Source of the DNA: a virus
Taxonomy: Duplodnaviria; Heunggongvirae; Uroviricota; Caudoviricetes
Direction: 5' to 3' (one strand)
Length of the DNA stretch: 64,000 bases
IMG/VR virus record: IMGVR_UViG_2648501802_000002
Shown: positions 38,037-64,000 of the stretch, piece after piece
How the letters are laid out: each line of letters begins with the position of its first letter
Numbering within the stretch: position 1 is the stretch's first letter
Position numbers and translations under genes: made by a program
Notes under the pieces: generated by a model
Told to the model about the DNA's origin: nothing
The model's input: only the letters and a program-made list of their open reading frames with translations
The model's database searches: none

Positions 38037-38046
38037 ATCCACTCCA

Positions 38047-38073: not shown

Positions 38074-38099
38074 GTCATAACACTGTGTTACCTGGCTAA

Positions 38100-38700
38100 T
38101 CAGAACTTATAACCGACACCACCGATGAAACCGTCAGTGCGCCAGTCGCCACTGCCGGAGCCTTCATAAGCAATATCAATGGCCACGGATTCGGTCGGGT
38201 TAAACTGCACGCCAGCTCCCCACGCCAGAGACGTGTTGCTGTGGCGATCGTCATCACTTCCGGTCAGCACATCGTGCGTTTTCCCCTTGTTGTCAGTTAC
38301 GCGGAGATAATCCCCGGAGAACGTCGAAACACGGCTGTAAGCCACACCTGCCATCGCATAAGCACTGAACCATTCATTCACGCGTACAGATGGCCCCGCC
38401 ATCATGCTGAACCAGCGGTTACGCACTGAATCTTCATGCCAGCGGGTATCGCTGTAATGCGTTTTTTGCTCATCTTTGGCATTGGCATAACTGAATGACG
38501 TCACCAGCCCCAGCGTGTCCGTAAATTCATAACGGTATTTCACGTTAATGCCCTTCAGGTCATCACTGCCTGGCATATCAGTATGGGCCCTGAAGATACC
38601 CGGCGCTTAGTGTGGACTGATGCTCTGCTGCGCTCGCTGGCGTACCAGCGGCAACCAGCCAGACTACTGCGGACAGAATAACAGCACATAATTTACGCAT
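38100..38700 (-). pseudogene. lom: Lom outer-membrane protein gene, frameshifted after the signal peptide
   Basis: ATG at 38700 gives MRKLCAVILSAVVWLVAAGTPASAAEHQSTLSAGYLQGPY-stop (38578-38580); remainder MPGSDDLKGINVKYRYEFTDTLG... in another frame matches lambda Lom; break at a G3 run. Confidence 0.75.
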
Positions 38701-42977: not shown

Positions 42978-43619
42978 TTGTCGGTGTACCTCTCTCGTTT
43001 GCTCAGTTGTTCAGGAATATGGTGCAGCAGCTCACCGTCACCACAGTAAATGGCGGCATGATTCGGCACCGATGAACCAAAACAGCACAGCAGCACATCG
43101 CCCGGCTGCGCCGCTGACAACGGCACCTGATACAGCCCTGTGGCCTCCAGATTATCCAGATAGAGATTCTGACCGTGACGCCACCAGTCATCCCCGCGAT
43201 GAAAATCCGGCATCTCAATCCCCGCCAGATGATAAGCATCCCGGAACAGCGTGTAACAGTCCGTCACCCCCGTGCTCAAAGCGCCGCCCGGTGAGATGCG
43301 GCACACAGCGGAACTTATGAATCGCCCCCCGGCAGACCAGCCACCACGGCAAATCACTCTGCACCTGCAGCCGCCGGTCAGCCTCACTCAGCCAGGGCAG
43401 ACCACCGGGGTGGCTGTGGACCAGCGCCACAATCTCACCCTGCATTTCTGCCTGCAGCCAGTCCTCCGGAGCCATCCGGAAATAATCCTCCGGCTCACCG
43501 GAAATATTCACGCCGGGAAAATATCTTTCCCCCTCCGGCGTGCTTACCACGAAGCCGCACGACTCCGCTGGCGCACATCGCCGGGCGTGCGCCAGAATCG
43601 CTGATTCTGTCTGTGTCAT
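42875..43619 (-). CDS. K: Tail assembly protein K (MPN/JAB + NlpC/P60); frame broken at a C5/G5 run as sequenced
   Basis: Upstream ORF MTQTESAILAHARRCAPAESCGFVVSTPEGERYF...HSHPGG...TGRRFEH switches frame at 43267-43271 into GVTDCYTLFRDAYHLAGIEMPDF...NHAAIYCGDGELLHH; together this is near-identical to lambda K. Confidence 0.8.
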
Positions 43620-47600: not shown

Positions 47601-47887
47601 AATTCATATTCTTCTTTATCAATAAGCCCTTTATCGAAAAATTTCTTTAATTCAGAATAGCGTCGACCGACAGTATCAATTGCGGCACCAACTGGATCAA
47701 TAGCTGCTTTTAATTTTGCGAGCGCGTTCTTCTCATCTTCTGTTGCCTTAGTCACTTTCCCTGCGCTATTTGCAGCAGTTTCCCCAGCCTGCGTCATTTT
47801 GACTAATGAGGAGGTCAGATTGTCAGCATTATTTTTCGCTCCAGTGCTATCAATAATTATTGCGAGACGCGAGGTTTGCTCTGCCAT
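44654..47887 (-). CDS. H: Tail tape measure protein H
   Basis: 1077-aa coiled-coil-rich ORF downstream of G/T. Confidence 0.85.
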
Positions 47888-47902
47888 TTATTAAAACTCC
47901 TG

Positions 47903-47932
47903 ACAACAAAAAACCCACCGCGAAGTGGGTTT
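47903..47932 (-). terminator. Candidate intrinsic terminator between G/T and H
   Basis: Minus-strand hairpin AAACCCAC-TTCGCG-GTGGGTTT followed by TTTGTTG. Confidence 0.35.
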
Positions 47933-48052
47933 CAGGCGACATAATAGTAGATATAGCGATTACGAGGCCACGCAATGCTTTTCTCCAGGAGCATCATCGA
48001 TTTAATTAAAGACACCATCACATCTCTGTAACAGAGTGTACGTAATTAACAA

Positions 48053-48373
48053 CTACACACACTGCTCCTGAAAATACTGGTCATCCAGTGCAAAGATCAC
48101 TGCTTCAAATTCATCGCGCTCAATCAATACCGGATGAGTGGCTAAATATTCATTTATCTCTGTCAGAGATAAAGGCAAAGGCACCCCAGCCATTCCAGCA
48201 TAACGTCGGGCACGGGATATTACCGAATAGGCGTACAACAACTCCTTAAGCACCGGGTCTATTTCTGGTTCCGGTATCGGTGGCAACCTGAGTTTTTCTC
48301 GCTTCCATCTTGCCTTTTCCCCCCTTTCTCCCCCGAACTCCGATAACCACCGCTGGGCAGCTATGGCTTTTTT
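48053..48373 (-). CDS. T: Tail assembly chaperone T-extension (expressed as G-T fusion by -1 frameshift)
   Basis: -1 frame downstream of the slip site is open to 48053 (...KKAIAAQRWLSEF...PEPEIDPVLKELLYAYSV...); no independent start. Confidence 0.6.
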   Translation of the reverse strand, partial: KKAIAAQRWLSEFGGERGEKARWKREKLRLPPIPEPEIDPVLKELLYAYSVISRARRYAGMAGVPLPLSLTEINEYLATHPVLIERDEFEAVIFALDDQYFQEQCV

Positions 48374-48756
48374 ATCGTATCCTGCTTCTGCTGCTCTTTA
48401 CCCTGGGCGATGCTGGCTGCTTCTGCAAGGATCTGCCAGTACAACTCTGGATTCTGCTTAAGCAGCGCGATCCCTCGTTCTGCCGTATATTCCAGTGCAA
48501 CCTCAACACCATTAACCAGTTCACCAACCCCTTTCCAGTCTTTCAGCAGATAACGAGCGGCATTATCAATGAGTAAATCATCAACAGAATCCACCTCGGA
48601 AACCTTTGAAATATCAAACTCCTTCGTTCCGACGTGCAAACTGGCATCCATTTTCTCAATGTGGCGACGGATTAATGCATTACGGGAGCGATACTGATCG
48701 TTATCGCTGCTTGCCACCAACAGTTTTAACCCGTCTACAGGTTTTAAGTCCTTCAT
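48361..48756 (-). CDS. G: Tail assembly chaperone G
   Basis: Start set at internal ATG (MKDLKPVDG...) preceded by GGAGAA; ends ...KEQQKQDTIKKP immediately after the slippery site. Confidence 0.65.
   Translation of the reverse strand: MKDLKPVDGLKLLVASSDNDQYRSRNALIRRHIEKMDASLHVGTKEFDISKVSEVDSVDDLLIDNAARYLLKDWKGVGELVNGVEVALEYTAERGIALLKQNPELYWQILAEAASIAQGKEQQKQDTIKKP
48367..48373 (-). other. Programmed -1 ribosomal frameshift slippery heptamer A-AAA-AAG (G/T)
   Basis: Minus strand ...GAT ACG ATA AAA AAG CCA TAG: heptamer AAAAAAG three codons before the G stop; -1 frame continues open. Confidence 0.55.
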
Positions 48757-48883
48757 TGGCGTAAACCAGCGTTCTCCACCAATGATAATTTTCTGATTAA
48801 GAATAAACATCCATAACCTCATTCAATGCGTCCCCCTGTAGGGCAGTACCACAGGAGGAATAACGGAAAATCAACTAATCGCC

Positions 48884-49834
48884 TCAGCACTGGCTTTTGC
48901 GATCACGGCAGCCGGGGAATTTTTTTTTTCTGGTTATCGTAGGTGCTTCATCTGCTGCGGTAATGCTCAATTGAACCTGGATAATGTCGCTATTACCCCC
49001 ATCAGGCCATTCACCTGACACCTGAACCTTCGGGAAACTGAAAGTGTATGCCCCCTCTCCATTCGAAAGCGTGAAGCTGAACGGAACTGTTTCTCCAGTC
49101 AGTGTTTTACTCCAGATTTCCCACGCGGCTTTAGACCATGAAAGCGTCACCGTACCGGACGGTGTAAAAGTAGTCGGAATATTTGCTCCTGCATAAGGCG
49201 AGCCAGTCCCGATACAACGCTGTGTCTGGAGTTTGTTATCGAACTGAATATCAAAACTGTCGATACAAAAACCGTTACCTCCGGCAACACCATTCAGGCT
49301 TACTGCTGAAACCTCCTTAAACGAATAACGTAGCTTTCCTGCACTATCCACAGGTTCGCCTTTGATAAAATTCGTATCATCGGCCTTTGATTCCCAGTCC
49401 AGTCCGGCAAAGGTTACGGTCGCTGTAATATCGCCGTCGTTAGGGATCTGCATTTTCCATGAGCCAACCTGCGCTCCTCTGACGACAGAGGCAATTCCGA
49501 CATCGGACGCATAGGTCGCCAGAGAAAATGTTATTCGCTCATTCCCCATTGTCAGAGAATCGCCTGACCATTCCGCGCCGAAACAGGATGCAAGAAAATC
49601 ATCATGTTGACCCCAGCGAAATTTGGTACCAACATCACCGCCGACATCCACAGTGCCAGGCGTCGCCCCCTGAGCCATCCGGGAGCCACCAATCTCATTA
49701 TTTTCGCCTTTATTATGGGTGGGTTTTACTCCCCAGCTTGTGCGTTTTAATAAACTCCAGTCACCACTTGCTGGCGTAGTGCCTGCAACCGTCTCCCGGA
49801 TAAATGCCGAGATAACCTTTGCACCTGAACTCAC
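48884..49834 (-). CDS. V: Major tail protein (V-like); 3' end probably shifted by an A10 run
   Basis: 316-aa ORF; A10 run at 48925-48934 near 3' end; with one fewer A the product would end ...SPAAVIAKASAEAIS rather than ...FPGCRDRKSQC. Confidence 0.7.
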   Translation of the reverse strand: MSSGAKVISAFIRETVAGTTPASGDWSLLKRTSWGVKPTHNKGENNEIGGSRMAQGATPGTVDVGGDVGTKFRWGQHDDFLASCFGAEWSGDSLTMGNERITFSLATYASDVGIASVVRGAQVGSWKMQIPNDGDITATVTFAGLDWESKADDTNFIKGEPVDSAGKLRYSFKEVSAVSLNGVAGGNGFCIDSFDIQFDNKLQTQRCIGTGSPYAGANIPTTFTPSGTVTLSWSKAAWEIWSKTLTGETVPFSFTLSNGEGAYTFSFPKVQVSGEWPDGGNSDIIQVQLSITAADEAPTITRKKKFPGCRDRKSQC

Positions 49835-49860
49835 AGGAGCCTCCTATGTCATTAATTGCG

Positions 49861-50253
49861 CTAGAGCGCGCGATATGGAATTTGAAGATTAAGCTGGAAC
49901 CAGCCATTCTTTTCGCCAACGGCTATTGAGGAAACAGCCTGGTAACTGAGACGATCGTCATCCTGAAACTCAAACAGTTCCCGCAATTTATCGGCTGTCT
50001 CAGTAATGAGTTTTGAACCAGAACCTGCGGGGACAAATAACTGAATAATGATTATCCCCGTGCGATAAACAATCGGCCCCGCGCCAATTTCATTAACTCC
50101 AGCCTGCCCGGGAATATTACTTAACCGCGCCCAGATTAACTTACCGGAAGGATCGAACGTTGGCGCGTTCGGATACAATACGTCTTTTCCATCAATAATC
50201 GTCTGTGCCGTCATTCTGGAAATAACCGTATTTCTGATTTCAGTAAACGTCAT
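49861..50253 (-). CDS. Tail completion/terminator protein (U-like)
   Basis: 130-aa ORF immediately upstream of major tail gene. Confidence 0.5.
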   Translation of the reverse strand: MTFTEIRNTVISRMTAQTIIDGKDVLYPNAPTFDPSGKLIWARLSNIPGQAGVNEIGAGPIVYRTGIIIIQLFVPAGSGSKLITETADKLRELFEFQDDDRLSYQAVSSIAVGEKNGWFQLNLQIPYRAL

Positions 50254-50630
50254 TTGTAAGCCTGTAAAACACCATGAAAAGCGTTGGCATACACGCCAGT
50301 TGGCGCTTGTTGTGAATGACCGTTTTCAAGAGCCTCTGCATAAGGAAGGTTATTCTGGATATAAATAACTCCGTAATTTGCAGCTTTCGAAATAACCCCG
50401 ATCCCACGCTGAACAGCAATCGTACCGTTCGGATCCACGTTATCAGATATACCAAAATCGGGATGCTGTAACGACACCAGGTTGTTATTTCTGAAACGTC
50501 CGGTATCAACCGGAGCAGCAATATCAATAGCAGTAAGAATCTGAATAGCGATGTAGCGAATCTTCAGCCCTACATCTTCCTCAATCATCCCGGCAAATAT
50601 TGACGGTTCTATATCCCATGCCTTTGCCAT
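50250..50630 (-). CDS. Head-tail adaptor/tail attachment protein
   Basis: 126-aa ORF, translationally coupled within head-tail joining cluster. Confidence 0.45.
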   Translation of the reverse strand: MAKAWDIEPSIFAGMIEEDVGLKIRYIAIQILTAIDIAAPVDTGRFRNNNLVSLQHPDFGISDNVDPNGTIAVQRGIGVISKAANYGVIYIQNNLPYAEALENGHSQQAPTGVYANAFHGVLQAYK

Positions 50631-51014
50631 TTACGCTCTCCTTAACTGGATAGAGTAAACTGATGCGGAAGGATCTACACTTGCTGTAATTACCTCGTAT
50701 CGTTGTAACTGCCTTGATACAGGATCATAAATCTCAATAATATGGTCGACAGCTGGTTTATCCGTAACCTCGCATACCAGAGCGGTTAATTTAAGGTCAC
50801 CATGCAAAATATTAATCCCATCAATTCTGCCCAGCTTATAACGTGTCAACACGCCTCGCCCGGTATAGATTGCGGTGGATTCGCCGCCAGTTTCCGTCAC
50901 AGGATCCCAGTGCCGGTGCGTAACGTAAGAACCAGAAAAATCACTCACGGCGTCCGCTAAATCCTCATCAAAAGCAGCGGCAACCTCTGACTGAATCTCT
51001 TCACGAAGCCCCAT
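50631..51014 (-). CDS. Head-tail connector protein
   Basis: 127-aa ORF in head-tail joining cluster. Confidence 0.45.
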   Translation of the reverse strand: MGLREEIQSEVAAAFDEDLADAVSDFSGSYVTHRHWDPVTETGGESTAIYTGRGVLTRYKLGRIDGINILHGDLKLTALVCEVTDKPAVDHIIEIYDPVSRQLQRYEVITASVDPSASVYSIQLRRA

Positions 51015-51409
51015 TATCCCCCCCTCACAACCCTGACTTGTGAGCGACTAAGTCCGTACGGTTTCAGCAGTGCTATCGCAAGCTGTAAATCGGGTTCAAG
51101 CAATGCAGTGCTGTTTGCTGGCAACTCAGAAAATGATTTCGATACACTGACCCCGTCAGCCGACACGGCTTTACTGATAACAACGCCAGAATCATTTTTC
51201 TGCTGAAACAACTTACCGAATGAGGCAATTCTGGCTGCATATGCTCCCGCAAGTTTTACCTCTTCCGGAATACGGGATGGGTTAATTTTCAGGTTGAAGC
51301 CATTAAGCCAGGCATTAGCCATTAAAACAGCTTTATTTTTAGCGTTCTCACTCGTCCAGGCGTTCCCAAACGCATTATCAACGTCATCACAGGTCACGTA
51401 AGTGATCAT
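51014..51409 (-). CDS. Head completion/DNA-packaging connector protein
   Basis: 131-aa ORF downstream of capsid gene. Confidence 0.45.
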   Translation of the reverse strand: MITYVTCDDVDNAFGNAWTSENAKNKAVLMANAWLNGFNLKINPSRIPEEVKLAGAYAARIASFGKLFQQKNDSGVVISKAVSADGVSVSKSFSELPANSTALLEPDLQLAIALLKPYGLSRSQVRVVRGG

Positions 51410-51412
51410 GTG

Positions 51413-51589
51413 TTACTCCTGAGTTTTCCAGCCCATAGCCTTCCAGTTGTCAACTTCATCAGGATGAACATTAGCGATAGTTGGTGCGCCGGGAAACATC
51501 TGATAATCGGTCACCATAACCACTAACTCAATTTGCGTTTTTTGTGCGGCTTCACGCTGTGCTCTTTGCTCTTTAGTTAATCCGGCCAT
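51413..51589 (-). CDS. Small phage protein (58 aa) between capsid and connector genes
   Basis: ORF not in supplied track (<60 aa): MAGLTKEQRAQREAAQKTQIELVVMVTDYQMFPGAPTIANVHPDEVDNWKAMGWKTQE; fills the gap exactly. Confidence 0.3.
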   Translation of the reverse strand: MAGLTKEQRAQREAAQKTQIELVVMVTDYQMFPGAPTIANVHPDEVDNWKAMGWKTQE

Positions 51590-51631
51590 ATGCCCCCCAT
51601 TAAAAATGGGGCCGAAGCCCCGTTTGAATGT

Positions 51632-52771
51632 TTAACCAAGAATCAGACAACCATGTGCCGGCTTCACTGATGAAACACCCCATGCCAGTCCAACTTCATA
51701 GCGCACCTGGCGATACTGACGATACAGTGCAATCTGGAACGTAATCCCTGAAATCGGGTCCGTAACATTCATTACATCATCAGCATTATCGCCACCTTCC
51801 GGCATTGCCGGAGTACGGGATGCCAGCAGAAACGCGTTGCGATCAAACGCCATATTTGCCGTAAAGGCCCCAACAACTGTGATGGCAGTATCATCGGCCA
51901 GATCCTGACGCAGTCCGGGCGCTGCAAGAGTAATCAGATTGCTGGTCGCTGCTGCCACAACATACTGATTCGGATCACCAGCGAACGTAACAATCTGACC
52001 TGCAGAAATACTCCCCGAACCAGTATCAATGGAAATAAGAACATCGCCTTCTTTTTTCTCTCCATTCACGAGATAACCAGTTGCAGCAACCTTTGGCGCT
52101 CGTTTCACACCTGCCGAACTGTGAATATTGAATCCCTCCAGACGCCCCAACACGCCCTCACGCAGTAGCTGTTCAGTGCCGGATTCATTCACTTTAAACA
52201 ATACAGACTGTTTTCCGCGCAAATTAGCAATGGCAGTGGAGCCAAGCACCATCTGCAGATCGGTTGTCGGTGCGCCGTTATCCTCCAGAACCTGACGAGC
52301 CAGAGCAGCATCAGAAAGATCATCTTTAACACCAAACGGCGTTGTCCCTGCGGTTCCCACGGCGCGGGAAGCACCGAAATACAACGCACCAAGATCAGCC
52401 TCAACCTCGTTTGCAAGGGCGCGAAAAGCCTGCTTGAACTGATCAGCCAGAATGGTGTTGTAAGTCCCTGAAGGGCCAAGAGCCAGTTGTTCTTCACCAT
52501 TCCATTTAACCGGTGCCATTTTGGATTTAGTAATTTTTACATCAACAGTGCCAATATTTTGATCACCGGTATTCGGAGCTGACGGCCCCGGTACGATATC
52601 TTCGGTTTTCGCCTCAGGCGCAACTGGCGCGGTTACCGTCTGATCTTTTGCTGCGGCGTCAGCTTTTGCGTTTTTTGCTACCGCAGGGATAAAACCTACC
52701 TGCTCACGGGATACAACATCCAGGGCGGTATAAATAGTCGGGATCAACCCGGTCAGGGTATTTCCAGCCAT
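51632..52771 (-). CDS. Major capsid protein
   Basis: Start moved to internal ATG (MAGNTLTGLIP...) with AAGGA ribosome-binding site; about 380 aa, follows scaffold gene. Confidence 0.7.
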   Translation of the reverse strand: MAGNTLTGLIPTIYTALDVVSREQVGFIPAVAKNAKADAAAKDQTVTAPVAPEAKTEDIVPGPSAPNTGDQNIGTVDVKITKSKMAPVKWNGEEQLALGPSGTYNTILADQFKQAFRALANEVEADLGALYFGASRAVGTAGTTPFGVKDDLSDAALARQVLEDNGAPTTDLQMVLGSTAIANLRGKQSVLFKVNESGTEQLLREGVLGRLEGFNIHSSAGVKRAPKVAATGYLVNGEKKEGDVLISIDTGSGSISAGQIVTFAGDPNQYVVAAATSNLITLAAPGLRQDLADDTAITVVGAFTANMAFDRNAFLLASRTPAMPEGGDNADDVMNVTDPISGITFQIALYRQYRQVRYEVGLAWGVSSVKPAHGCLILG

Positions 52772-52869
52772 AATTAAATATTCCTTAAAAATTTGCGTAA
52801 TTGTGAATAGATGGAGTAATGAGCTATCCAGCCCTGACACCAGCTCCCATCCGGAAGCTGACAAATGTG

Positions 52870-53634
52870 TTAATCAACGATTGTGATACCGTCTTTCAAT
52901 GCGTTTTGCTTACCTGCAACATCCAGTGCATCAAAAGCAGAGCGTTTCATCGTTTTCTGACCAATATCATGCTGTGTCGGACGGGAGCCGCCGCCATTGT
53001 TGCCACTGGCTTTCAGGATGTAGTCTTTCTGAGGGTAATTTTCGACAAGGAACTCCAGCGCCTCATCAAACTGCGCCAGTTCGCCAGGCTTCGCGCGGGA
53101 ATAAATTTTGTTGCCGGAAGCGTCATAAGCAACGATCCTCCCTTCTTCCACTTTGAATGCCTGCCCGAAGCGGGCTTGTAATAAATCTGCCGGGATCGCA
53201 ATTTTATCGGCAATATATTTTGAACCCGCAAAACTACCGCCAATCATAGAATCGTAAAGCTGCTTCTCCAGCATCTGAGAGCGTTGCTTTTCTTCATCTA
53301 ATTGCTGCTGAAAATTTTTCGTAATTTCTGCCTTAACCTGGTCAACCTGTCCCGCATCGAGCAGCTTTTTCTGGTCGATTTTTGACAGCATTTCCAGTGC
53401 CTCGATCGCCTTCTTCGGGTCTTCGATAGCGGCAAACTTAGCCAGTTTTTCCTCTGCAGCTTCTTTAGCCAGGCGATGATTTTTTGCCTCGCCATTAAGC
53501 TCTGTAATTTTTTTTGTCGCCAGCGGTGCATCGAAGCCAATTTCTTTACCATCGTCGTGCACATAAACTGGCAGGCCAGCAGTATCAATTTCTGCGTATT
53601 GTTTTCCGTTAATCTCGACCGTTTTCAGTTTCAT
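52870..53634 (-). CDS. Capsid scaffolding protein
   Basis: Start moved to internal ATG (MKLKTVEINGKQYAEID...); helical, charged, between head-morphogenesis and capsid genes. Confidence 0.6.
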   Translation of the reverse strand: MKLKTVEINGKQYAEIDTAGLPVYVHDDGKEIGFDAPLATKKITELNGEAKNHRLAKEAAEEKLAKFAAIEDPKKAIEALEMLSKIDQKKLLDAGQVDQVKAEITKNFQQQLDEEKQRSQMLEKQLYDSMIGGSFAGSKYIADKIAIPADLLQARFGQAFKVEEGRIVAYDASGNKIYSRAKPGELAQFDEALEFLVENYPQKDYILKASGNNGGGSRPTQHDIGQKTMKRSAFDALDVAGKQNALKDGITIVD

Positions 53635-53738
53635 ATTAGTACCTGGTTTAAGTCTTCCGACAGTTACGCTGCTCACCATCCGGATCGCAGCAATAAAAAA
53701 GGCCACCCGAAGGTAGCCTGTTGTAATAAATGATTTAT

Positions 53739-54854
53739 TTAAATCCCTGCTTTTCTGAATACCTGTGCATCACGCTCACGGAGCTGCTTCAGCGTCAGCC
53801 ATTCGCCTTTATCGGTGTAAAATTCATCTGGCGACATACCACCATCCCGAATCAGCTTTGCTCGGGTTTCCCCCACAATCTGTTTTTGTCTGGTGTAAGG
53901 CTGACGCAAAAACCATTCCCTGTAGGTTGTATCTCCGGCCACCACGCCATCCATGCTGGCCCGCTCAGCCGGGGAAATATCGCGAACATCAATACCCAGT
54001 TCCTTCGCTGATTTCAGAATGAACGTTTCCGTTGAGCGGCAGCAGAAATGAATTTTTCCCGGCCCCTGCAAATAAGGCACGCTGTGACCTACAGGTTTAT
54101 TATTCAGCGTATATTTGAGGCGATCCCTGATTCGACATTGTGGCGTAGTACGATTATCAAGCGTTGATAACCATTGCTTACCCTTAATCAAATCATTATT
54201 CGCGCTGGCAAAACTCTCACGGGCAGTAGCAGCAAGATGTCCAACCGCTGTTTTTGCAATGCTGGCCGCATTAGCCCGGCTCATCTGCAATGCACCATCC
54301 TGAAATCCCTTACTGACATGTCCCCGAATTTTTCTTGCGATCTGCTCATTGGTATCCCCCAGCAAAAAACCCTGACGCACTGTATTTGTTATGCGTCTGA
54401 GCCGATCCGCCTCAAGATCTGAGGCCCACTCACTGAGCAGTCGTCCCTGGAATGGTCGCGCCATTGCAGCGGCATAAAGTGCATCAGGAGAGATACCAAC
54501 CAGAGGGTGAACATCAGCAACAAAATCAGGTAGCATAGAATCAAACAGACTTAACTGATAACCAGCCTCATAAATTGCCAGCTCGTTCAGCTCTCCGGAG
54601 AGACTGGTAAACATGCTGTTAATAGCAGTGCGGTTAACCTTTCTGACGCTCGCCAGAAGTGACTCCAGGCGCTTAACGGTAAAATTACCTGGATCGAGGC
54701 TGTCCAGTGCTATCAGCAGGCGAGCAGTAAGTTCCGCATCGCTGTCATTCAGTATTTTCACCATTCTGGCAGCCACGCCAGTGCTATAGCGGGATATCCA
54801 GACTGCATGAGCAATTGATTCATCACGCAGCCGTTCATTCACGGTTTGCATCAT
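53739..54854 (-). CDS. Head morphogenesis protein (Mu F / SPP1 gp7-like)
   Basis: 371-aa ORF directly downstream of portal. Confidence 0.7.
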   Translation of the reverse strand: MMQTVNERLRDESIAHAVWISRYSTGVAARMVKILNDSDAELTARLLIALDSLDPGNFTVKRLESLLASVRKVNRTAINSMFTSLSGELNELAIYEAGYQLSLFDSMLPDFVADVHPLVGISPDALYAAAMARPFQGRLLSEWASDLEADRLRRITNTVRQGFLLGDTNEQIARKIRGHVSKGFQDGALQMSRANAASIAKTAVGHLAATARESFASANNDLIKGKQWLSTLDNRTTPQCRIRDRLKYTLNNKPVGHSVPYLQGPGKIHFCCRSTETFILKSAKELGIDVRDISPAERASMDGVVAGDTTYREWFLRQPYTRQKQIVGETRAKLIRDGGMSPDEFYTDKGEWLTLKQLRERDAQVFRKAGI

Positions 54855-56241
54855 TGATTTCCATCAGCATTACACTCTGATTTTTTAATTCATCGATCAC
54901 TTCCTCTGGACGGGAATCCTGATCGATAAATTTCAACGCCTGCAACACCCGAACCGCATCAATCTGACGTATATCACCGCCCTGACGCAATGACTGAACA
55001 GCCAGCGCGGAGGATGAGTCAAACACCTGGGCAGATACATCCAGTTCAGTGCGCACATCCACATTGCCACCGCAACTCTCTCCGATCCATTCCGCCATTA
55101 TCTGGAGAATATTATCGAGGGCATCTTCGAGGGAGTTCGCCATTGTATAAAGCGGCGAGTTTTCCTGCATTCGCTCTTCATTAGTCTGATCAACAGATTT
55201 GGTGGATGTATTTTCAGCACGCAGAAGTTTAGCGCCGGCATGACGCATCTGATTTTCCAGCTTCTCAAGTGATGTTTCGCCAGATTCTATCGCTGCGCCA
55301 CTATGTTCAACATATTCGAGGCCATTTTTTGTTCTGTCCTCAAAAATCGTAGCGGTGGATGCACCAACCGTCAGTTCTTCATTCCTGTCCAGCCCGTAGG
55401 CCACCAGCAATGGAACGCGGGTAACATGAAGAATATTGTCCTGCTCGCTCTGGCTTTGCCAGTGCTTGATATTCAGCAAGCCAAGATTAAGCAATGGCGG
55501 TGTACCACGCATAAATCCTGTTTTCTTCGTGTACAGTGTTACCAGAGGAATATCATCACGGCTGGTATTCCATGACTCATGAAGCGTCCAGACAGATTCG
55601 CCATTAGTGCCTTCGCTACGTCGATAAATTTCAACTCGACGGGGCATAATATGGCGGATCTGCTCCACCTTCTTCTGCCCGAAATCATCACCATCAATAA
55701 TGATGACCTCTTTTATACGCAAATCAGTGAGAACAACTTTCCCTTTTTCAACTTTCGATTTCCATCCAATAACCTGGCGTGGATTCAGCATCGTAACGTA
55801 CGGACGACCACCGGTCGCGTTTTCATCGGCTTTTGTACGAATCTCTTTCATATCCGTTCGTGGATAGTCCACCAGCGCATGTGCCACACCATACTGAAAT
55901 GCGAGGCTGAAAAATTGCTGGGCCCACACATCCAGTCGGCTCCCCTCCATGTCGATATTTTCTGCATATTCCCTGATTTTTGCCGGCGTTTCCTCACTCA
56001 ATACTGTCGGCTCTGCAAATATGCGCCCAATATTTTGCTTGATGCTTTCTTCATACACAGGAAGTAGCGTAGCCACAGACAGGCGTTTTTTATAAGCGTC
56101 TTCATCTTCGTTAGGCCATTTTGGGAGATAATTTTCCCCCTGCCTGCGCATTTCAAGCGTACCGCCCATCAGTGCGTCGTTAATATCCCACGCCTCCAGC
56201 ATATCGTTATAGTCGAGGTTGGGTGTTGATATATCAGCCAT
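54835..56241 (-). CDS. Portal protein
   Basis: 468-aa ORF immediately downstream of terminase large subunit. Confidence 0.75.
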   Translation of the reverse strand: MADISTPNLDYNDMLEAWDINDALMGGTLEMRRQGENYLPKWPNEDEDAYKKRLSVATLLPVYEESIKQNIGRIFAEPTVLSEETPAKIREYAENIDMEGSRLDVWAQQFFSLAFQYGVAHALVDYPRTDMKEIRTKADENATGGRPYVTMLNPRQVIGWKSKVEKGKVVLTDLRIKEVIIIDGDDFGQKKVEQIRHIMPRRVEIYRRSEGTNGESVWTLHESWNTSRDDIPLVTLYTKKTGFMRGTPPLLNLGLLNIKHWQSQSEQDNILHVTRVPLLVAYGLDRNEELTVGASTATIFEDRTKNGLEYVEHSGAAIESGETSLEKLENQMRHAGAKLLRAENTSTKSVDQTNEERMQENSPLYTMANSLEDALDNILQIMAEWIGESCGGNVDVRTELDVSAQVFDSSSALAVQSLRQGGDIRQIDAVRVLQALKFIDQDSRPEEVIDELKNQSVMLMEINDANRE

Positions 56242-56243
56242 AA

Positions 56244-57554
56244 TTAAATCCGAAGTGATGTGACTCTTCCGGTCGGTTTGACAATAGGGAATTGCTTAAC
56301 GATGAAATAACCTCCTGCATCATTCGGGTGATCATTGCCAGATTTTTTATCAGGCTCCCCCTTCTCATCCCAGACCTGTTGCTCCAGAGATTCGGCATAT
56401 AACGGGCAACGCTTCACATTAACTTTATAGCGACGCTCACCATTGGCATTGCAGAACATTGCATTCATTGAGTTAACGCGATCTTTTACTGGCGGGTTCG
56501 AGCTGTTCACCACAACGTTAAAACCAGCCTGCTTAAGCTGGGCTATATCCGTCGTACTTGCGTTACTTGATTTTCTGGAATCCCCGGAAGCATCTGGATA
56601 AATATAAATTTCCCTCACTTTCCGGTAATCATTCCCATCATACAGCCAGAAGCGTTCTTTAATGATGCGGATCATATCCGGCGTATCGTAGGCATTGATG
56701 ATTTCAGTTACCGCACATGGAAGCCCCAAACGCAGCACATGGACGATTCCCGCCATCTTTCCAACGTTAAAATCCATCCCAATATAAATCGGCTCCCCTG
56801 GCTGCTCCACTTCTTCGCAATTATTCAGTTTCCGGTCAAACTGATGGTAAACAGTACCACTTGTCAGGTTAGTAAACTGTCCTCGAAGATAGGCTTTAAT
56901 CAGCTCTGGAGGGTATGATTCAAGAAGCGAAGGAATGTAATCTGCTGGCAGGTTCTTTTCATTATCGAAAGTAGATGCCTGCACCAGACCATACAGTGAG
57001 GCCAGCTCTGTTTTTTCACGCACGGCTTTAACAAACTGCTCGTAGACAAATTTGAATCCTTCCGGCGTGGTTGTAACGTCAATACCGTTGCGAAGTCCAT
57101 CAATCTTATAACGCATACGTGCAATTATCTTGCGCCACGCCGTTCTGGCTTTTTCCTTCGGCAAAATGTCCAGTTCATCCACCAACGCATTACCAATTTT
57201 GAAACCGACGATCGTTTGTGGCTTCTCCATCGATCTGCAGATAGTGGTTCCCCGATACTGGCGTCCGTAATAAAAGTGAACCTCTTTATTTCCCTCATTA
57301 ATTTTTACGTTCAATCCCCAGTCAGCAGCAACTTCTTCCACTGTAGGGTAAAAAATATCGCGAATTTGGGGATACGTTGGCGCAAAATATCCCTGATTTA
57401 TACCTGGATGCTCCCAAATCCCCTTGCATATGCCGCCACACCCAACCCATGTTTTGCCCGAGCCAAAACCAGCAATATAGGCTTTAAATTTATGGGGCAT
57501 TGAAAGAAATCGCGCCTGAGGCACATTAAGCGTCGGAGAGATCATCTTCATCAC
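56244..57554 (-). CDS. Terminase large subunit
   Basis: 436-aa ORF with Walker A AGFGSGKTW and C-terminal nuclease-like region. Confidence 0.85.
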   Translation of the reverse strand: MMKMISPTLNVPQARFLSMPHKFKAYIAGFGSGKTWVGCGGICKGIWEHPGINQGYFAPTYPQIRDIFYPTVEEVAADWGLNVKINEGNKEVHFYYGRQYRGTTICRSMEKPQTIVGFKIGNALVDELDILPKEKARTAWRKIIARMRYKIDGLRNGIDVTTTPEGFKFVYEQFVKAVREKTELASLYGLVQASTFDNEKNLPADYIPSLLESYPPELIKAYLRGQFTNLTSGTVYHQFDRKLNNCEEVEQPGEPIYIGMDFNVGKMAGIVHVLRLGLPCAVTEIINAYDTPDMIRIIKERFWLYDGNDYRKVREIYIYPDASGDSRKSSNASTTDIAQLKQAGFNVVVNSSNPPVKDRVNSMNAMFCNANGERRYKVNVKRCPLYAESLEQQVWDEKGEPDKKSGNDHPNDAGGYFIVKQFPIVKPTGRVTSLRI

Positions 57555-58620
57555 TCCTTACTCTGGCATCAACCACATTAATATTGATCGCCACAGGCTG
57601 GGGATGTTCATTATCTTCCACCGTTTCGATCTCTTTGCGCAGCTTCTGGTTTTCCATTCTGCGCCGTTCAATTTCCAGTTCCTGTAGCCGTTTATCTGCA
57701 CATAAAGCCCCGCCAGCAGAAAACAAACGCAACAATTCACGCCGGGCGGCAGCCTTATCCTCCAGCAGGATCTCAACGCCGAATTTTCCGAATTTTGCCC
57801 CTGCATATAATTGCCGCGCATCCCCATCAAGCAGAGTGGTATCAGCCATATAAAGCTGTCCCGTTCCCTCACCGCAGCACTTCGGGCAGTCCGGATTGGG
57901 TATGGCGTTATCAACAAAGCCGAGGCCTCCATATTCCGGTTCGGGTTTGCCATCTCTGGAAGCCTGCGCCGCTGCCTTGTCGAATTCTGCTATATCGCGC
58001 CACTGGTAGAGATGATTCTCGCCCCAGCAATAACGGCAGTTAACACGGCGAAATTGTGCAAGCTGATTGGGGTCGGCCAGGACAATAGCCATCAACTGAC
58101 TCACTAGTAAATCCAGGTCTGCGGTATAGCGTTTCTGGTACTGATTGCGGAAGTAGCTGATAGCGCGAAAAACCCTGGCATTTCTAAGCATACGACTGGC
58201 GTTGCTGTTAGCTGTCGCACCTTGCCCCTCATAACCGGCTAGTCGGTACGCCTCTGTCGGCTTTTTACCCTGAGCAACAAGCATCGCAAACTTAGCCTGC
58301 TGGTCAGAAATGCCGAATTCATCGGGACAGAACGAAAATTCCTCCGCGTCGCCCTCATTCAGGCCCGCATCGAATACTGGCTTTTTTTCCTGAGATTTTT
58401 CGTTCCGCTTTTGTGCAGTCTGCGCAGATTTTTTCTGCGCACTTTTTTGCGCAGTTTTGCACATTTCTGTCTGCGCATTTTTCGGAGTTTTTTTGATGTA
58501 ACGACGGGCTGTTGCGTAATTCAGTCCCCTTGCTTCACACCATGCCACCGGAGATATACCGGAGCGGGTGTATTCAGCAATATACTCCTGCTGCAACGCC
58601 CCCCAGTCCGGTCTGCTCAT
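57526..58620 (-). CDS. Terminase small subunit
   Basis: 364-aa ORF; N-terminal HTH (MSRPDWGALQQEYIAEYTRSGISPVAWCEARGLNYATARRY); overlaps terminase large start. Confidence 0.65.
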   Translation of the reverse strand: MSRPDWGALQQEYIAEYTRSGISPVAWCEARGLNYATARRYIKKTPKNAQTEMCKTAQKSAQKKSAQTAQKRNEKSQEKKPVFDAGLNEGDAEEFSFCPDEFGISDQQAKFAMLVAQGKKPTEAYRLAGYEGQGATANSNASRMLRNARVFRAISYFRNQYQKRYTADLDLLVSQLMAIVLADPNQLAQFRRVNCRYCWGENHLYQWRDIAEFDKAAAQASRDGKPEPEYGGLGFVDNAIPNPDCPKCCGEGTGQLYMADTTLLDGDARQLYAGAKFGKFGVEILLEDKAAARRELLRLFSAGGALCADKRLQELEIERRRMENQKLRKEIETVEDNEHPQPVAININVVDARVRSDEDDLSDA

Positions 58621-58623
58621 CAG

Positions 58624-58875
58624 TTAGTCCTGATTTTTATCCACCCTGAGTAGTTCGCGCAGAGCAAAGGCATCCCCTTTTCTGGCAAGCTTAAACAATG
58701 CCGCTCGTAACTCGGCTTCACCTTTCGCTCTGCCCTTACGGATGGCCGCATAAAAATCTGTCATTGCTTCCCGATTTTCTTTCAGTCGGTTCAGATCAAC
58801 ATCCAGAACGTCAGCGATTTGTTGTGCAGTCATCCGGCACGCTGCCAGAGACTCGACTTTCGAATACGGAATCAT
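58624..58875 (-). CDS. Small hypothetical protein upstream of terminase
   Basis: 83-aa helical ORF; overlaps upstream ORF by 65 nt so true start uncertain. Confidence 0.3.
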   Translation of the reverse strand: MIPYSKVESLAACRMTAQQIADVLDVDLNRLKENREAMTDFYAAIRKGRAKGEAELRAALFKLARKGDAFALRELLRVDKNQD

Positions 58876-59764
58876 TTGTCACCCCCATTGATATGCAGGG
58901 TGTCTTCTTCCTGTATTTTTCGTGAAGGATTTTTACTGCAGCGTTGTTCCAGGTGACCTGATGGTGAATGCGTTTATGGCTGGCACCCATCAGTGAGATT
59001 TTTACGCACGACGGCGCATACATGACGGAGTAAAAACTTTTAACGTAGGTTCCGGAATCCAGATACAGCTCGGTCATTCCGCCGCTGTTTTTCTGCGTCT
59101 GTTTCTGCCCTAACTGGACAGCACCGATCGTCATAAACAATTCACCACAGCGACCGAGATTCGTGTACGTATTCACATCCTCGTTAATGCGCCCCATGAA
59201 TGAGAACGGTCGATCAACCGAACAGATAAAGCTGTTCATTGCCTTGCGTTTCACCCACGAAGCATGGCCGCCATTGTCACCAAGAAAATCCCCGCCCTGC
59301 GACATAGCGATGGAAAGAGCAGGTATTGATTCGTAGTACGCCAGCATTTCAGAAAGGATCGCATCCAGTTTCCTTATCGGAAAATAGGCCTGGTCATAGT
59401 TGCGATCCACCCGAAACTGGAACTCGTGATAATCATCATCGAGCTGAATGAAGTATTTACACCCGACCAGTTTTGCCAGGTCGAAACAGGCATTACGGGC
59501 GTAAAAAATTGAGCGGCGGTCACAGAAATTATCGGCTTCGTCAAAACGACTGGCGATATCGGCTTTGGAAAACACCAGCACCTGTTCACCAAATTCAGCC
59601 ATGTACTGATTCCGTGTCTTATCTTCATCATCAACAACGATAAAAATTTTCCCGGTATAGCCAGCACGACGCAACGTCCGGTAAGTCAGAACTTTGTCCG
59701 GTCGCCCGTGAGTCAGAATAAAGGCGCAAAAATCATCACGCATATTCCTCCTCCTCACCACCAT
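58811..59764 (-). CDS. Hypothetical protein with GT-A-like fold features (DXD-type motifs)
   Basis: 317-aa ORF; FILTHGRPDKVL...IFIVVDDED and FIQLDDDY resemble nucleotide-sugar transferase motifs; function unverified. Confidence 0.4.
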   Translation of the reverse strand: MVVRRRNMRDDFCAFILTHGRPDKVLTYRTLRRAGYTGKIFIVVDDEDKTRNQYMAEFGEQVLVFSKADIASRFDEADNFCDRRSIFYARNACFDLAKLVGCKYFIQLDDDYHEFQFRVDRNYDQAYFPIRKLDAILSEMLAYYESIPALSIAMSQGGDFLGDNGGHASWVKRKAMNSFICSVDRPFSFMGRINEDVNTYTNLGRCGELFMTIGAVQLGQKQTQKNSGGMTELYLDSGTYVKSFYSVMYAPSCVKISLMGASHKRIHHQVTWNNAAVKILHEKYRKKTPCISMGVTNDSVFESRVSGSVPDDCTTNR

Positions 59765-60527
59765 GCATGATCTCCACCATGCGCTGCGTCATCCGGACAA
59801 ATCCATTTTCAATAGCCTGCTGATAATCAATGATCACCAGCGCCGACTCCTCGAAAAAACACTGAATTTCAGAGGGGGCGTGAGCGTAATAGTCCGCAAT
59901 TCTGCTGAAATTAAACACCGTGTGACGTTCTGCCGCACACAGGAGGAATTTCTCAATATCAGGCTCAAGGGACGCCGAACGTATCCGGCTGATCAGCTCC
60001 TGAGTTTTCGTATCGTCGTACAGTTCACTGATATCCGGTTTACCGCCCGACGGCTCATAAACAGGCGTATCAATTTTCGTCGCATACGGCTCCTCCTCAT
60101 TTCCTGTACCGGGCAAAACATCCGTCAACAGTTCATCAATTTCTGTCGGGATGAAGCCTGTCAGGGAGACATCAAAATCAGCATTGATTAGGTCCGACAG
60201 CTCCATCCGCAACAGATCTTCATCCCAGCCAGCATTCATCGGCAGGCGATTATCTGCCAGGCGGTACGCCTTTTTCTGCTCATCCGTCAGGCCAGACAGA
60301 ACAATGACCGGAACAGAATCCATTTTGAGCATTTCAGCCGCCATAACACGACCGTGACCCGCAATAATTTCGCCCTTTTCGTCAATCAGCACCGGATTAG
60401 TCCAGCCGAATTGCTTAATACTTTCTACCAGTTGTGCCACCTGCTCAGGGCTGTGCGTCCTGGCGTTGTGCGCATACGGTGACAATTCTTGTAATGGGCG
60501 ATAGACTATCTTTAATTTCTCGCTCAT
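59736..60527 (-). CDS. ParB-like nuclease domain protein (YnaK-like)
   Basis: 263-aa ORF; ParB N-terminal domain motif (VLIDEKGEIIAGHGRVMAAEML). Confidence 0.7.
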   Translation of the reverse strand: MSEKLKIVYRPLQELSPYAHNARTHSPEQVAQLVESIKQFGWTNPVLIDEKGEIIAGHGRVMAAEMLKMDSVPVIVLSGLTDEQKKAYRLADNRLPMNAGWDEDLLRMELSDLINADFDVSLTGFIPTEIDELLTDVLPGTGNEEEPYATKIDTPVYEPSGGKPDISELYDDTKTQELISRIRSASLEPDIEKFLLCAAERHTVFNFSRIADYYAHAPSEIQCFFEESALVIIDYQQAIENGFVRMTQRMVEIMHGGEEEEYA

Positions 60528-60664
60528 ACAGCCTTGCTTTATGAATAAAACGCACCCCAGCAGCCAGTGCTACTGGGGACGGAGGGGTTGCTGGTAAAGT
60601 TAGGTATTGGATCAATGAGTGAGTCAACATAATATTAAACTCACAATTATAAATCAGCCATATA

Positions 60665-62140
60665 TTAGGAGCGCCAAAAAAAACCTGAAAACAATATAAT
60701 AACAGGATAAATTTCAAGGCGACCAAGAATCATAGCTATGCACATTAAACATTTTGCAATGTCATTAAGCACTCCGAATGACGATGCAGTAGCCCCAAAA
60801 CCTAATCCCATATTATTAATACATGCAGCCACTGTTGCAAATGATGTAAGAAAATCATATCCCATACCATTTAACACCAGTATAAAAAACACCGTGAAGA
60901 GAGTATAAAGAAAAAAGAAACTCCATACAGACCTCATTACACGATCTGTAACTATCTTCCCTCCTACATTTACACTCAACAACGCTCTGGGATGAGAAAG
61001 CTGATTTATCTCGTGTTTGCTTTGTTTGAAAAGTATAAGAAATCGAAGTGACTTAATTCCACCACAAGTTGAACCTATACATCCCCCAAAGAAACTTGAC
61101 AACAGCAAAAACACTATCGTGTGCGTGGGCCAACTTGCATAATCCTGCGTAGCTAAACCATTATCAGTGAGCATGGAGCTGGCAAGAAAAAACGAATGAA
61201 TAAAACTTCCATGCAAGTCATACATACCTATATGCCAGACCTGGAAAGAGGTAACAATGATCACCCCTAAGGCTATTAACAGAAAGAAACGAAGTTCAAT
61301 ATCTCTGATTAAAGGTTTTATCGTTTTCCTGCTAATAACAATATACCAAAGAGTGAAGTTGAAAGCCGATAGCAGGGAAAAAGAACCAGCCACCAGCTCA
61401 ACCAAATAGTTATTAAAATATCCGATACTCTCGCTATGAGTTGAGAAACCACCAAGCGAAACTGTGGAAATCCCGTGACAAATAGCATCAAACAAAGGCA
61501 TTCCTGCAAGTCTATAACAGACAATACAAGCAATACCTAATAAAGAATAAGTTATCCACAGTGTCCGTGACGTATCGGCCAGGCGGGGAGTGAGTTTGTC
61601 ATCCTTAAATGGCCCCGGCATTTCTGACTGATAAAGCTTTGCACCACCAATACCCAATAATGGCAATACAGCAACCGCCAGAACAATAACTCCTAAACCA
61701 CCTATAAAATTTAACTGTGACCGATAGTACAAATATGCCCGAGGTAATGAACTAACATCATCAATTACAGTTGCTCCTGTTGTTGTTATTCCAGAAACCC
61801 CTTCAAACAGAGCATCAATGAACGTTAAATTAAGTTCTGAGTCAATCCATAAAGGGAATGCACTAATAACAGAAAACAAAATCCAAAACATTACAATTAT
61901 AATAAACCCATCACGGGTACGTAATTGAATGCCAGATTTCTTAGTTGTATACCACGCTCCGCCACCAATGCAAAAAAATATAACGAAAGTTATAAAGAAA
62001 ACGAACAGGCTTTTTTCTTTATAAAACAATGCTACAACCATTGGTGGCAACATTGAAAGACTATAGAGCCAAACCAGGAACCCACACATATGAGTAACAA
62101 CTCTTACATGAGATGTATTCATATCTAAATATTCTTTCAA
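60665..62140 (-). CDS. trkG: TrkH/TrkG-family potassium uptake membrane protein (Rac trkG-like cargo)
   Basis: 491-aa polytopic membrane ORF, AT-rich; N-terminus MNTSHVRVVTHMCGFLVWLYSLSMLPP as I recall for E. coli TrkG; sits between lysis cassette and packaging genes as in Rac. Confidence 0.8.
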   Translation of the reverse strand: MKEYLDMNTSHVRVVTHMCGFLVWLYSLSMLPPMVVALFYKEKSLFVFFITFVIFFCIGGGAWYTTKKSGIQLRTRDGFIIIVMFWILFSVISAFPLWIDSELNLTFIDALFEGVSGITTTGATVIDDVSSLPRAYLYYRSQLNFIGGLGVIVLAVAVLPLLGIGGAKLYQSEMPGPFKDDKLTPRLADTSRTLWITYSLLGIACIVCYRLAGMPLFDAICHGISTVSLGGFSTHSESIGYFNNYLVELVAGSFSLLSAFNFTLWYIVISRKTIKPLIRDIELRFFLLIALGVIIVTSFQVWHIGMYDLHGSFIHSFFLASSMLTDNGLATQDYASWPTHTIVFLLLSSFFGGCIGSTCGGIKSLRFLILFKQSKHEINQLSHPRALLSVNVGGKIVTDRVMRSVWSFFFLYTLFTVFFILVLNGMGYDFLTSFATVAACINNMGLGFGATASSFGVLNDIAKCLMCIAMILGRLEIYPVIILFSGFFWRS

Positions 62141-62259
62141 TTATAACCACCTTGCTGCAATATTATGATTATACTGTATAAAATTTAACTCCTCTTAGAT
62201 CTTACTTCACTGTTCCTTATGAAACAATCATCAAAATGAATCATATTGTAGTTAAGATT

Positions 62260-62724
62260 TTACTTTAAACACTGCTCGGTTATGTATTGCTGAGCACCTT
62301 CAAGTTGGGCCTGCATCATTACCAGTCGTTCCCGGAGGGTGAAATAATCCCGTTCAGCGGTGTCTGCCAGTCGGGGGGAGGCTGCATTATCCACGCCGGA
62401 GGCGGTGGTGGCTTCACGCACTGACTGACAGACTGCTTTGATGTGCAACCGACGACGACCAGCGGCAACATCATCACGCAGAACATCATTTTCAGCTTTC
62501 GCATCAGCTAACTCCTTCGTGTATTTTGCATCGAGCGCAGCAACATCACGCTGACGCATCTGCATGTCAGTAATTGCCGCGTTCGCCAGCTTCAGTTCTC
62601 TGGCATTTTTGTCGCGCTGTTCTTTGTAGGCGATGGCGTTATCACGGTAATGATTAACACCCCATGACAGGCAGACGACGATGCAGATAACCAGAGCGGA
62701 GATAATCGCGGTTACTCTGTTCAT
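62260..62724 (-). CDS. Rz: Spanin inner-membrane subunit Rz
   Basis: [55 protein letters not shown]... near-identical to lambda Rz; start set at MNRV. Confidence 0.8.
62319..62504 (-). CDS. Rz1: Spanin outer-membrane lipoprotein subunit Rz1 (embedded in Rz, +1 frame)
   Basis: 61-aa ORF with lipobox LVVVGC and proline run [15 protein letters not shown]. Confidence 0.75.
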
Positions 62725-63218
62725 TGCTGACCCCACAAACAGATTTCACGCTCAATCTCACGACGAGTCATGAGACCTTTCCATTGCTTACCGCCAGCAT
62801 ATGTCCAGCGACGTAGCTGATCACATGCGCCTTTGATATCGCCCTGGTTTATTTTGCGAAGAAGCGTCGATGTTCTGAAATTGCCAGCACCCACGTTGTA
62901 AACGAATGAGTAAAGAGCGCCGCGCGTTGTTTCCGGTATATCGACTTTGATGTACGGGTTAATTTGTCTGGCGACCGTGGCAAGGTCTTTATTCAAGAGT
63001 GTTTTGCATTCTGCTTTGGTATACGTTTTACCGAGCATGATGTCTTTTCCTGTATGCCCGTGACATACAGTCCATACACCAACAATATCTTTGTATGGTA
63101 TGTAGCTGACACCTTCCAGACCATCGTTACCACTTGGGCCAGTGATTAACACTGATGCTATAGCAATTGCTCCGCCACCAATAGCAGCAGCAACGACTTT
63201 TCGTAATGATGGAGGCAT
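62721..63218 (-). CDS. R: P21 R-type SAR endolysin (GH24 lysozyme)
   Basis: 165-aa ORF; [27 protein letters not shown] signal-arrest-release domain and lysozyme core; matches remembered P21 R. Confidence 0.85.
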
Positions 63219-63433
63219 TATTCACCTCTCGCAGCCTTGCGCTTATCTTCTTTAATCTTGAAATAAAGGTTTGTCAGGTACGTCAGCAGGCCAAATACCA
63301 GACTACCCAGCACACCGATTGCAGCCCACTGTGACGGAGTTACTCTATCGAGCAACTGTAAAAACCAGTAGCCAGCACTGCCTGCGGAGGTGCCGTAGGC
63401 AATGCCTGTTGAAATTTTGTCCATGGATTTCAT
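63218..63433 (-). CDS. S: Pinholin S21 (dual-start holin/antiholin)
   Basis: [71 protein letters not shown], 71 aa; dual-start MKSMDK; matches remembered S21. Confidence 0.8.
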
Positions 63434-63535
63434 AGCCTCACCTCCGCACGGAACGGATGGCATAGTTATTATGTGTAGGCTTTCAGACACATCAATCAGA
63501 GCCTTAATTGATATATATGCTGGAGACGATGCAAT

Positions 63536-63684: not shown

Positions 63685-64000
63685 CTAACCTCGCATGTCA
63701 AAGCCAGATTTCTGAAAATCTCTGTAGACTTCCGGATTGTTGAAGGCCGGAAATTTGGCTTTATGAGCTGCGGACTTTATCGCTTCGCAATAGGCTTTAT
63801 CACCGTTACTGGTAGATATTTTTAACGCCGTACCATCCTGAGAGAATTCCATATGCAACCTGCATTTTTTCCCTTTCCAGTTATGCGGCTCATCAAGTTT
63901 GGCATTAATTGCAGCTCTGATTCCCCGCGCTTGCGCCCCCCATTCATCCTGATCATCCCAGCGTCCTGAACTGCAACTACCTGTAGCAGTAGTTTTGTGG
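63685..64000 (-). CDS. Partial ORF (3' end only; 5' end beyond window), TolA C-terminal-domain-like protein
   Basis: Minus-strand frame reads ...NWKGKKCRLHMEFSQDGTALKISTSNGDKAYCEAIKSAAHKAKFPAFNNPEVYRDFQKSGFDMRG-stop (stop at 63685-63687); weak resemblance to TolA domain III. Confidence 0.3.
   Translation of the reverse strand, partial: HKTTATGSCSSGRWDDQDEWGAQARGIRAAINAKLDEPHNWKGKKCRLHMEFSQDGTALKISTSNGDKAYCEAIKSAAHKAKFPAFNNPEVYRDFQKSGFDMRG

Follow-up and report, generated by a model that had tools for sequence, protein, structure and literature searches.

A trkG potassium-uptake gene as low-GC cargo between the lysis and packaging genes of a Rac-like prophage

The gene at 60665..62140 on the minus strand of the window, by which we mean the whole stretch of 64,000 nucleotides analysed here, is with high probability a lysogenic-conversion ('moron') gene: a trkG whose product is identical to TrkG of Escherichia coli K-12, carried in a low-GC cassette in a variable slot and providing the host with a second route for K+. 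Published work already covers the position of trkG within Rac, its low GC content, its control by H-NS and the transport properties of its product, as well as active Rac-like phages; the observation as such is therefore already known. Intact Rac-like prophages with trkG are common, and the observation carries little weight as a discovery. What is added here are the exact points at which K-12 Rac was joined after its deletions, as seen against an intact relative, how far the cassette extends, evidence for the variability of the slot and a probable correction of the trkG start codon by six codons.

Results

Identity of the transporter

The open reading frame starts with TTG at 62140 and codes for 491 amino acids, exactly as described in an earlier note on this DNA that had called the product a TrkH/TrkG-family transporter. 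The family models agree: the product matches Pfam TrkH (PF02386) over residues 46-489 with E=5e-145 and 484 bits (cut-off 27) and NCBIfam TIGR00933 with 415 bits (cut-off 331). It can be aligned end to end with the TrkH structures 3pjz and 4j9u from V. parahaemolyticus (E=1e-120), and the profile phrog_1916, which has 491 positions, covers its residues 1-491; in PHROGs, the family is entered as phage-borne with function unknown. Four M1-P-M2 repeats, each with a conserved pore-loop glycine, are present in the product, and the glycines G122, G230/G231, G328 and G445/G447 (491-aa numbering) are invariant in 19 sequences of the TrkG clade. Invariant in 19 TrkG-clade sequences is also D327 (D333 in the 491-aa numbering); the motif NGLATQD of the product has its aspartate five residues past the third pore-loop glycine.

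Within the family, the BLASTP comparison with TrkG and TrkH that the earlier note had proposed gave a clear answer. Translated from the ATG at 62122, the product is identical to K-12 TrkG (b1363) in 485 of 485 residues, whereas its score with the TrkH equivalog model NF008020 is 449.7 bits, well below the cut-off of 866. From these two results the gene is assigned to the paralogue TrkG and not to the chromosomal TrkH; it is the prophage-borne paralogue of trkH and encodes the membrane subunit of a Trk K+ uptake system. A 2-kb segment with trkG is 100% identical to loci annotated as trkG in many E. coli genomes. TrkH, the transporter of the core genome, belongs to the same fold family and has the same four pore-loop glycine motifs, but it is a paralogue and not an orthologue of the TrkG in the window, with an identity of ~41% (PMC9898762). 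In contrast to TrkH, TrkG is Na+ dependent with D327, and it is AT-rich and repressed by H-NS (PMC9898762).

Neighbouring genes

The earlier note had placed trkG between Rz/Rz1 and the ParB-like and terminase genes, and this is indeed the order found, with all genes on the minus strand. On the lysis side lie a P21-type holin (63218-63490; Pfam Phage_holin_2_1, 4.5e-35) and a lysozyme (62721-63218; Pfam Phage_lysozyme, 1.8e-45), both 100% identical to rrrD/essD of SE11, followed by the i-spanin Rz (62260..62736; Pfam Phage_lysis, E=4e-53) with the o-spanin lipoprotein Rz1 embedded in it (62319-62504), which is identical to K-12 RzoR in 60 of 61 residues (98%). On the other side of trkG, a protein of 263 amino acids with a ParB/Srx N-terminal domain (59736..60527; Pfam ParB_N; phrog_620, E=8.5e-91) is followed by a TAGT-like glycosyltransferase (58811..59764; Pfam TAGT PF20691, E=8.4e-35; phrog_842, E=1.2e-103), the two genes overlapping by 29 nt. 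The packaging genes then comprise a small TerS-like ORF (58624-58875), TerS (57526-58620) and TerL (56244-57554). The stretch 56244-58875 has matches to Pfam Terminase_2 and Terminase_6N/6C and to phrog_309 and is 100% identical to SE11.

The ParB/Srx and TAGT-like pair (58811-60527) lies directly upstream of TerS, and no TET/JBP gene is found nearby. The label of phrog_842 is 'beta-glucosyl-HMC-alpha-glucosyltransferase', and Pfam TAGT stands for TET-Associated Glycosyltransferase; the ParB-like protein and the glycosyltransferase may be a DNA-modification pair that acts around packaging. Just upstream of the holin, a gene for a protein with a TolA C-terminal domain (63688-64000, continuing past the end of the window) is 100% identical to the copy in the SE11 prophage, where a second tolA-like gene adjoins the first. 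A protein of this kind might interfere with colicins that depend on Tol, or with filamentous phages.

Base composition and extent of the cassette

That trkG is more AT-rich than the flanking phage genes, as the earlier note had remarked, is confirmed by its GC content of 37.8% against ~50%, or, in exact terms, 0.378 with a GC3 of 0.321 versus 0.499 for the Rac-like backbone (37566-60600). No other stretch of 1476 bp within the Rac-like part has so low a GC content (next lowest 0.423; z = -2.6). Over the whole 64 kb, 2.3% of non-overlapping intervals are as AT-rich as trkG, all of them in the P1-like part described below. Since GC3 is low too, the amino-acid bias of a membrane protein is not the sole cause of the AT-richness.

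The cargo is a low-GC cassette of 1.66 kb, about 60598-62259, which consists of an AT-rich leader/promoter region (62141..62259, minus strand; 26-32% GC), trkG and an AT-rich 3' tail past the trkG stop (60598..60664, minus strand). The GC content around this tail (60600-60699) is 0.29. In loci without trkG, homology with the window covers the packaging genes and breaks off at 60597 in six cases and at 60550 in three; from the break at 60597 the edge on the ParB side is placed at ~60598. The edge on the Rz side, at ~62259, the base past the Rz stop, is set by composition alone, as an empty site that shares this Rz end was not found; here, GC drops from 0.59 at 62300-62399 to 0.26-0.32 at 62100-62299. 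A chimeric query made of the ParB flank and the Rz flank detected no locus joined without trkG in 5,426 complete E. coli genomes, and in an exact search of viral contigs for the Rz 3' end, 75 out of 75 matches ran into the trkG leader, with no empty site among them.

Just upstream of the ParB-like gene, a terminator-like hairpin with a 10-bp stem followed by UGCGUUUUAU is present at 60555..60578 on the minus strand (-22.8 kcal/mol, z=-2.45). It was found in six of nine relatives that lack trkG, and a diverged hairpin occupies the equivalent place in the locus L067. As its DNA is common to relatives without trkG, the hairpin belongs to the phage backbone and is ruled out as the cargo's own terminator. 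It is the sole convincing hairpin here, and thus a 3' terminator owned by the cargo was not found.

Start codon, leader and promoter

In reference annotations trkG starts with the ATG at 62122, giving 485 amino acids; the TTG at 62140 is six codons upstream and gives 491. A Shine-Dalgarno sequence, AAGGTGG (62147..62153, minus strand), is positioned 6 nt upstream of the TTG, and none is seen in the sequence before the annotated ATG. Shine-Dalgarno sequence and TTG are kept at the equivalent position in the homologs from E. fergusonii (GGAGGtataaTTG) and Pectobacterium (GGGAGttttcaTTG), and TrkG homologs of 491 residues have I, L, F or H at the site of the methionine annotated in E. coli. Taken together with the length of the PHROGs profile, this argues that the TTG is probably the true start, that the 491-aa form is probably the real product of trkG and that the annotated form is probably six codons short.

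The leader (62141-62259) is identical to that of K-12. A perfect TATAAT is found in it at 62173-62168, and a promoter-like site at 62269-62240 reaches into it; a promoter scan of the trkG region gave five promoter-like matches versus 6.7 expected in shuffled sequence. The fragment upstream of trkG from K-12 drives a luciferase reporter, and expression from the K-12 leader is documented by reporter and qRT-PCR data (PMC9898762). We infer that the trkG promoter lies within 62141-62259.

Comparison with Rac of K-12

The window has the gene order rzpR-rzoR-trkG-ynaK-ydaY-ynaA of Rac with near-identity. In the synteny comparison with K-12 proposed in the earlier note, the order rzpR-rzoR-trkG-ynaK was recovered exactly: 60274-62704 corresponds in blastn to K-12 rzpR'-rzoR-trkG-ynaK with seven differences in 2431 bp (99.7%), none of them in the trkG leader and two in trkG, both synonymous. 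A second stretch, 46953-48712, corresponds to K-12 ydaY-ynaA (99.9% over 1760 bp, blastn). What lies in between in the window, 11.56 kb at 48713..60273, is deleted in K-12: the ParB-like gene has lost its C-terminal two thirds there, and the glycosyltransferase, TerS and TerL, the portal and head genes, the connectors and the tail tube are gone altogether. Where this deletion was joined (window 60274) there is a microhomology of 1-2 nt, and K-12 ynaK is the first 87 codons of the ParB-like gene of 263 codons. K-12 Rac has nothing of the DNA right of 62704, so that the 5' end of Rz, the lysozyme and the holin are absent; as homology ends there, K-12 rzpR is a 5'-truncated pseudogene. Protein and leader of trkG are thus identical in the cryptic prophage and in the window, but the neighbours, which are whole in the window, were lost in K-12 by the 11.56-kb deletion and a second one on the Rz 5' side. 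The suggestion that the window holds a relative of Rac fuller than what remains in K-12 is well founded, since it keeps both 48713-60273 and the DNA right of 62704.

Full-length Rac-like relatives

Over 40368-64000, the window is 98.9% identical to the full-length Rac-like prophage of E. coli strain SE11, and the order of genes from gpJ to the holin is unchanged. The SE11 prophage extends into the Rac early genes ydaSTUV, sieB, kilR, racC and recET; in our case the Rac early region and the attachment site lie beyond the window, whose right edge is at 64000, the prophage being cut on the left at 37565. The late region had been called largely complete, and indeed, of the 26 late genes annotated for SE11, the window has 24 in intact form, with 99-100% amino-acid identity. 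The closest relatives, SE11 and ON470595.1, carry recET/int/ttcA. ON470595.1 (vB_EcoS-683R6) has trkG in the equivalent slot (99.6%), and its record extends to int, ttcA and dbpA; a Salmonella phage record in GenBank also has trkG in the equivalent slot. Active Rac-like phages at ttcA have been described, namely KingRac (Frazao et al. 2019, PMC6731689) and Sp10/CP-933R (PMC4632033).

Compared with full prophages of the SE11/ON470595.1 type, the prophage in the window is frameshifted by +1 in each of two genes, tail K and lom, and its side-tail-fibre gene is cut at 37565. The tail K gene (C40 peptidase, 42875-43619) is split by an insertion that turns C4 into C5 near 43266, and in lom (38100-38700) the frame of the signal peptide is lost by an insertion near 38588 (GG to GGG). 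A deletion of 1 nt is also seen near 38056, in the hairpin downstream of lom. All three indels fall in homopolymer runs and thus reflect either errors of sequencing or early prophage decay.

Prevalence and variability of the slot

The 3' end of trkG is present in 1,616 of 5,426 complete E. coli genomes, and 846 of these 1,616 have complete ParB-like and glycosyltransferase genes as in the window. Remnants of the K-12 type match no more than the 36% of this stretch that lies beyond the deletion joint. The protein cluster of TrkG at 90% identity has 4,894 member sequences. Among 80 viral contigs with a ParB-like protein 95-100% identical to that of the window, 71 have trkG upstream; the remaining nine lack trkG in upstream DNA of 2.2 kb or more, where a different lysis cassette and small ORFs are found instead. 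Presence in 71 relatives and absence in nine identify the boundary between lysis and packaging genes as a variable cargo slot.

In two of the 75 viral contigs with linked trkG (L106 and L156), ungapped identity ends within the 5' part of trkG, ~280-290 nt past the Rz stop, which suggests that an indel or insertion disrupts the gene.

Homologs in other Enterobacterales

The TrkG-type clade is spread across Enterobacterales, with identities of 79% (E. fergusonii), 77% (Citrobacter), 75% (Pectobacterium) and ~62% (Xenorhabdus); the nearest of these homologs is thus only 79% identical. The contexts are not Rac-like: the gene lies between porin and DJ-1-like genes in E. fergusonii, directly after pth-ychF in Pectobacterium and, in Serratia, in a P4-like island with AlpA, a D5-type primase and IS fragments. 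No flanks are shared with these three, the similarity being limited to the coding sequence. GC contents are 0.43 (Pectobacterium) and 0.45 (Serratia) vs 0.50 for the flanks, and 0.42 vs 0.44 in E. fergusonii. That trkG of the Rac-like prophage is of foreign origin is supported by these contexts.

The Serratia island was seen in contigs of the Serratia marcescens type (L010/L011), where a TrkG-type gene (66% identity) is found in a P4-like integrative island next to a gene for a Na+/alanine symporter, IS fragments and a helicase-like gene of 1960 codons (DUF4011/AAA_11/AAA_12). TrkG-type transporters are apparently carried by several kinds of mobile elements.

Discussion

TrkG of K-12 takes up K+ in a Na+-dependent manner, conducts Na+ as well, and depends on the host gating (RCK) protein TrkA; its Na+ dependence is linked to D327, and it is able to back up TrkH (PMC9898762). 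Expression of trkG is partly, not fully, repressed by H-NS, and also by StpA; in Rac it has a GC content of 38%, versus 53% for trkH, and it is regarded as phage-acquired (PMC9898762). No trkA gene is present in the 64-kb window. From these data and the features described above, the following picture emerges. The trkG cassette occupies a variable slot of a Rac-like lambdoid prophage, with the lysis cassette on one side and the ParB-like/terminase module on the other, and very probably acts as a lysogenic-conversion gene that is expressed from the repressed prophage. It would be transcribed from its own upstream region, damped partially by H-NS because it is AT-rich, and its product would work with TrkA of the host and give the cell a second K+ route suited to Na+-containing habitats. 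In addition, trkG is oriented like the late operon and no terminator-like site is found from the Rz stop (62260) to the start of trkG, so read-through from the late promoter probably leads to its transcription late in lytic growth as well.

In two properties, its presence or absence in close relatives at one position and its deviant base composition, trkG agrees with the definition of a moron. In other respects the classic signature is incomplete: promoter-like matches do not exceed those in shuffled sequence, and the strong hairpin downstream is part of the backbone. A moron at the lysis/packaging boundary is well exemplified among lambdoid phages by bor of lambda, downstream of Rz. Like bor, trkG would be a non-essential cargo of deviant composition in a slot that separates the lysis genes from the next module, present in some relatives only and, as is typical of lambdoid morons, expressed from the prophage; unlike morons of the bor type, it has no cargo-owned terminator that we could find, and it encodes a transporter with 12 helices and not a small surface protein.

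Is it the host that benefits, or the phage? A function mainly for the phage, in which TrkG made late would tune K+ content or membrane potential for virion production or holin timing, would suit the position of trkG on the strand of the late genes directly after Rz, the lack of a terminator-like site in between, the absolute linkage by which the Rz 3' end is followed by trkG in each of 75 viral contigs and in every complete genome examined, and the entry of the family in PHROGs as phage-borne with function unknown. We consider it quite unlikely, since nine of 73 informative relatives with the same packaging module manage without trkG and since trkG is kept and functional in K-12, where a lytic cycle is impossible (PMC9898762); AT-richness and control by H-NS, too, are what one would expect of an accessory gene expressed in the host. 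Relatives without the gene and non-inducible remnants with it thus argue against a primary role in the phage. The narrower idea that late expression of trkG in intact Rac-like phages alters K+/Na+ flux or membrane potential and thereby affects the timing or yield of lysis is unlikely, too. A benefit for the lysogen would, on the other hand, explain why trkG survived in remnants such as K-12 Rac despite the loss of the phage genes around it.

This benefit is deduced from retention, as no growth condition that impairs a K-12 trkG deletion was found under the stresses tested (PMC9898762). The same result, along with the near-identical trkG sequences across strains that recent spread would produce, could be taken to mean that trkG is a neutral passenger, of use to neither host nor phage and kept by linkage and a recent spread of Rac-like prophages. 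This is very unlikely given that trkG is intact in remnants where the deletions on either side stop only ~400-560 bp away from it, that both differences from K-12 trkG are synonymous and that trkG is, together with recE, among the few Rac genes well conserved in 154 genomes (PMC5700373). Finally, the gene might be taken for an orthologue of chromosomal trkH, or a trkH-like gene beside phage DNA, with a low GC content that reflects membrane-protein bias; Pfam and NCBIfam do place the product in the TrkH family, and Phe, Ile and Leu are abundant in transmembrane proteins. The equivalog score of 449.7 bits against 866, the identity of 100% to TrkG versus ~41% to TrkH (PMC9898762), the phage genes that flank it left and right over more than 20 kb and synonymous sites that are AT-rich as well (GC3 0.32) leave practically no room for this reading, and we regard it as refuted.

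It should be mentioned that the Rac-like prophage is not flanked by chromosomal DNA on its left. A flank with uspF/ompN, as in K-12 or ST2747, was looked for and not found; at 37565 the prophage meets P1-like phage-plasmid DNA (1-37565, with darA, baseplate genes, sit and pmgB), which is 96-99% identical to E. coli plasmids of ~95 kb and to P1/P7. The break is clean, with an overlap of 1 nt, and truncates genes on both sides: pmgB (36810-37550) lacks ~47 N-terminal codons, and of the N-terminal side-tail-fibre gene (37584-38078) 164 of 791 codons are left. No record among complete E. coli genomes or phage records spans the joint, which stems either from contigs that were concatenated or joined in assembly, or from illegitimate recombination between P1 and Rac. 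The P1-like part has further low-GC patches at 3506-6085 and 26323-27328. The former includes genes for an EAL-domain protein (4050-4739, minus strand) and an AraC-type regulator (4976-5710, plus strand), and an ORF at 3241-3996 has no family match; the latter has a gene for a hexapeptide-repeat acyltransferase (26517-27080). Both patches look like variable cargo of the phage-plasmid.
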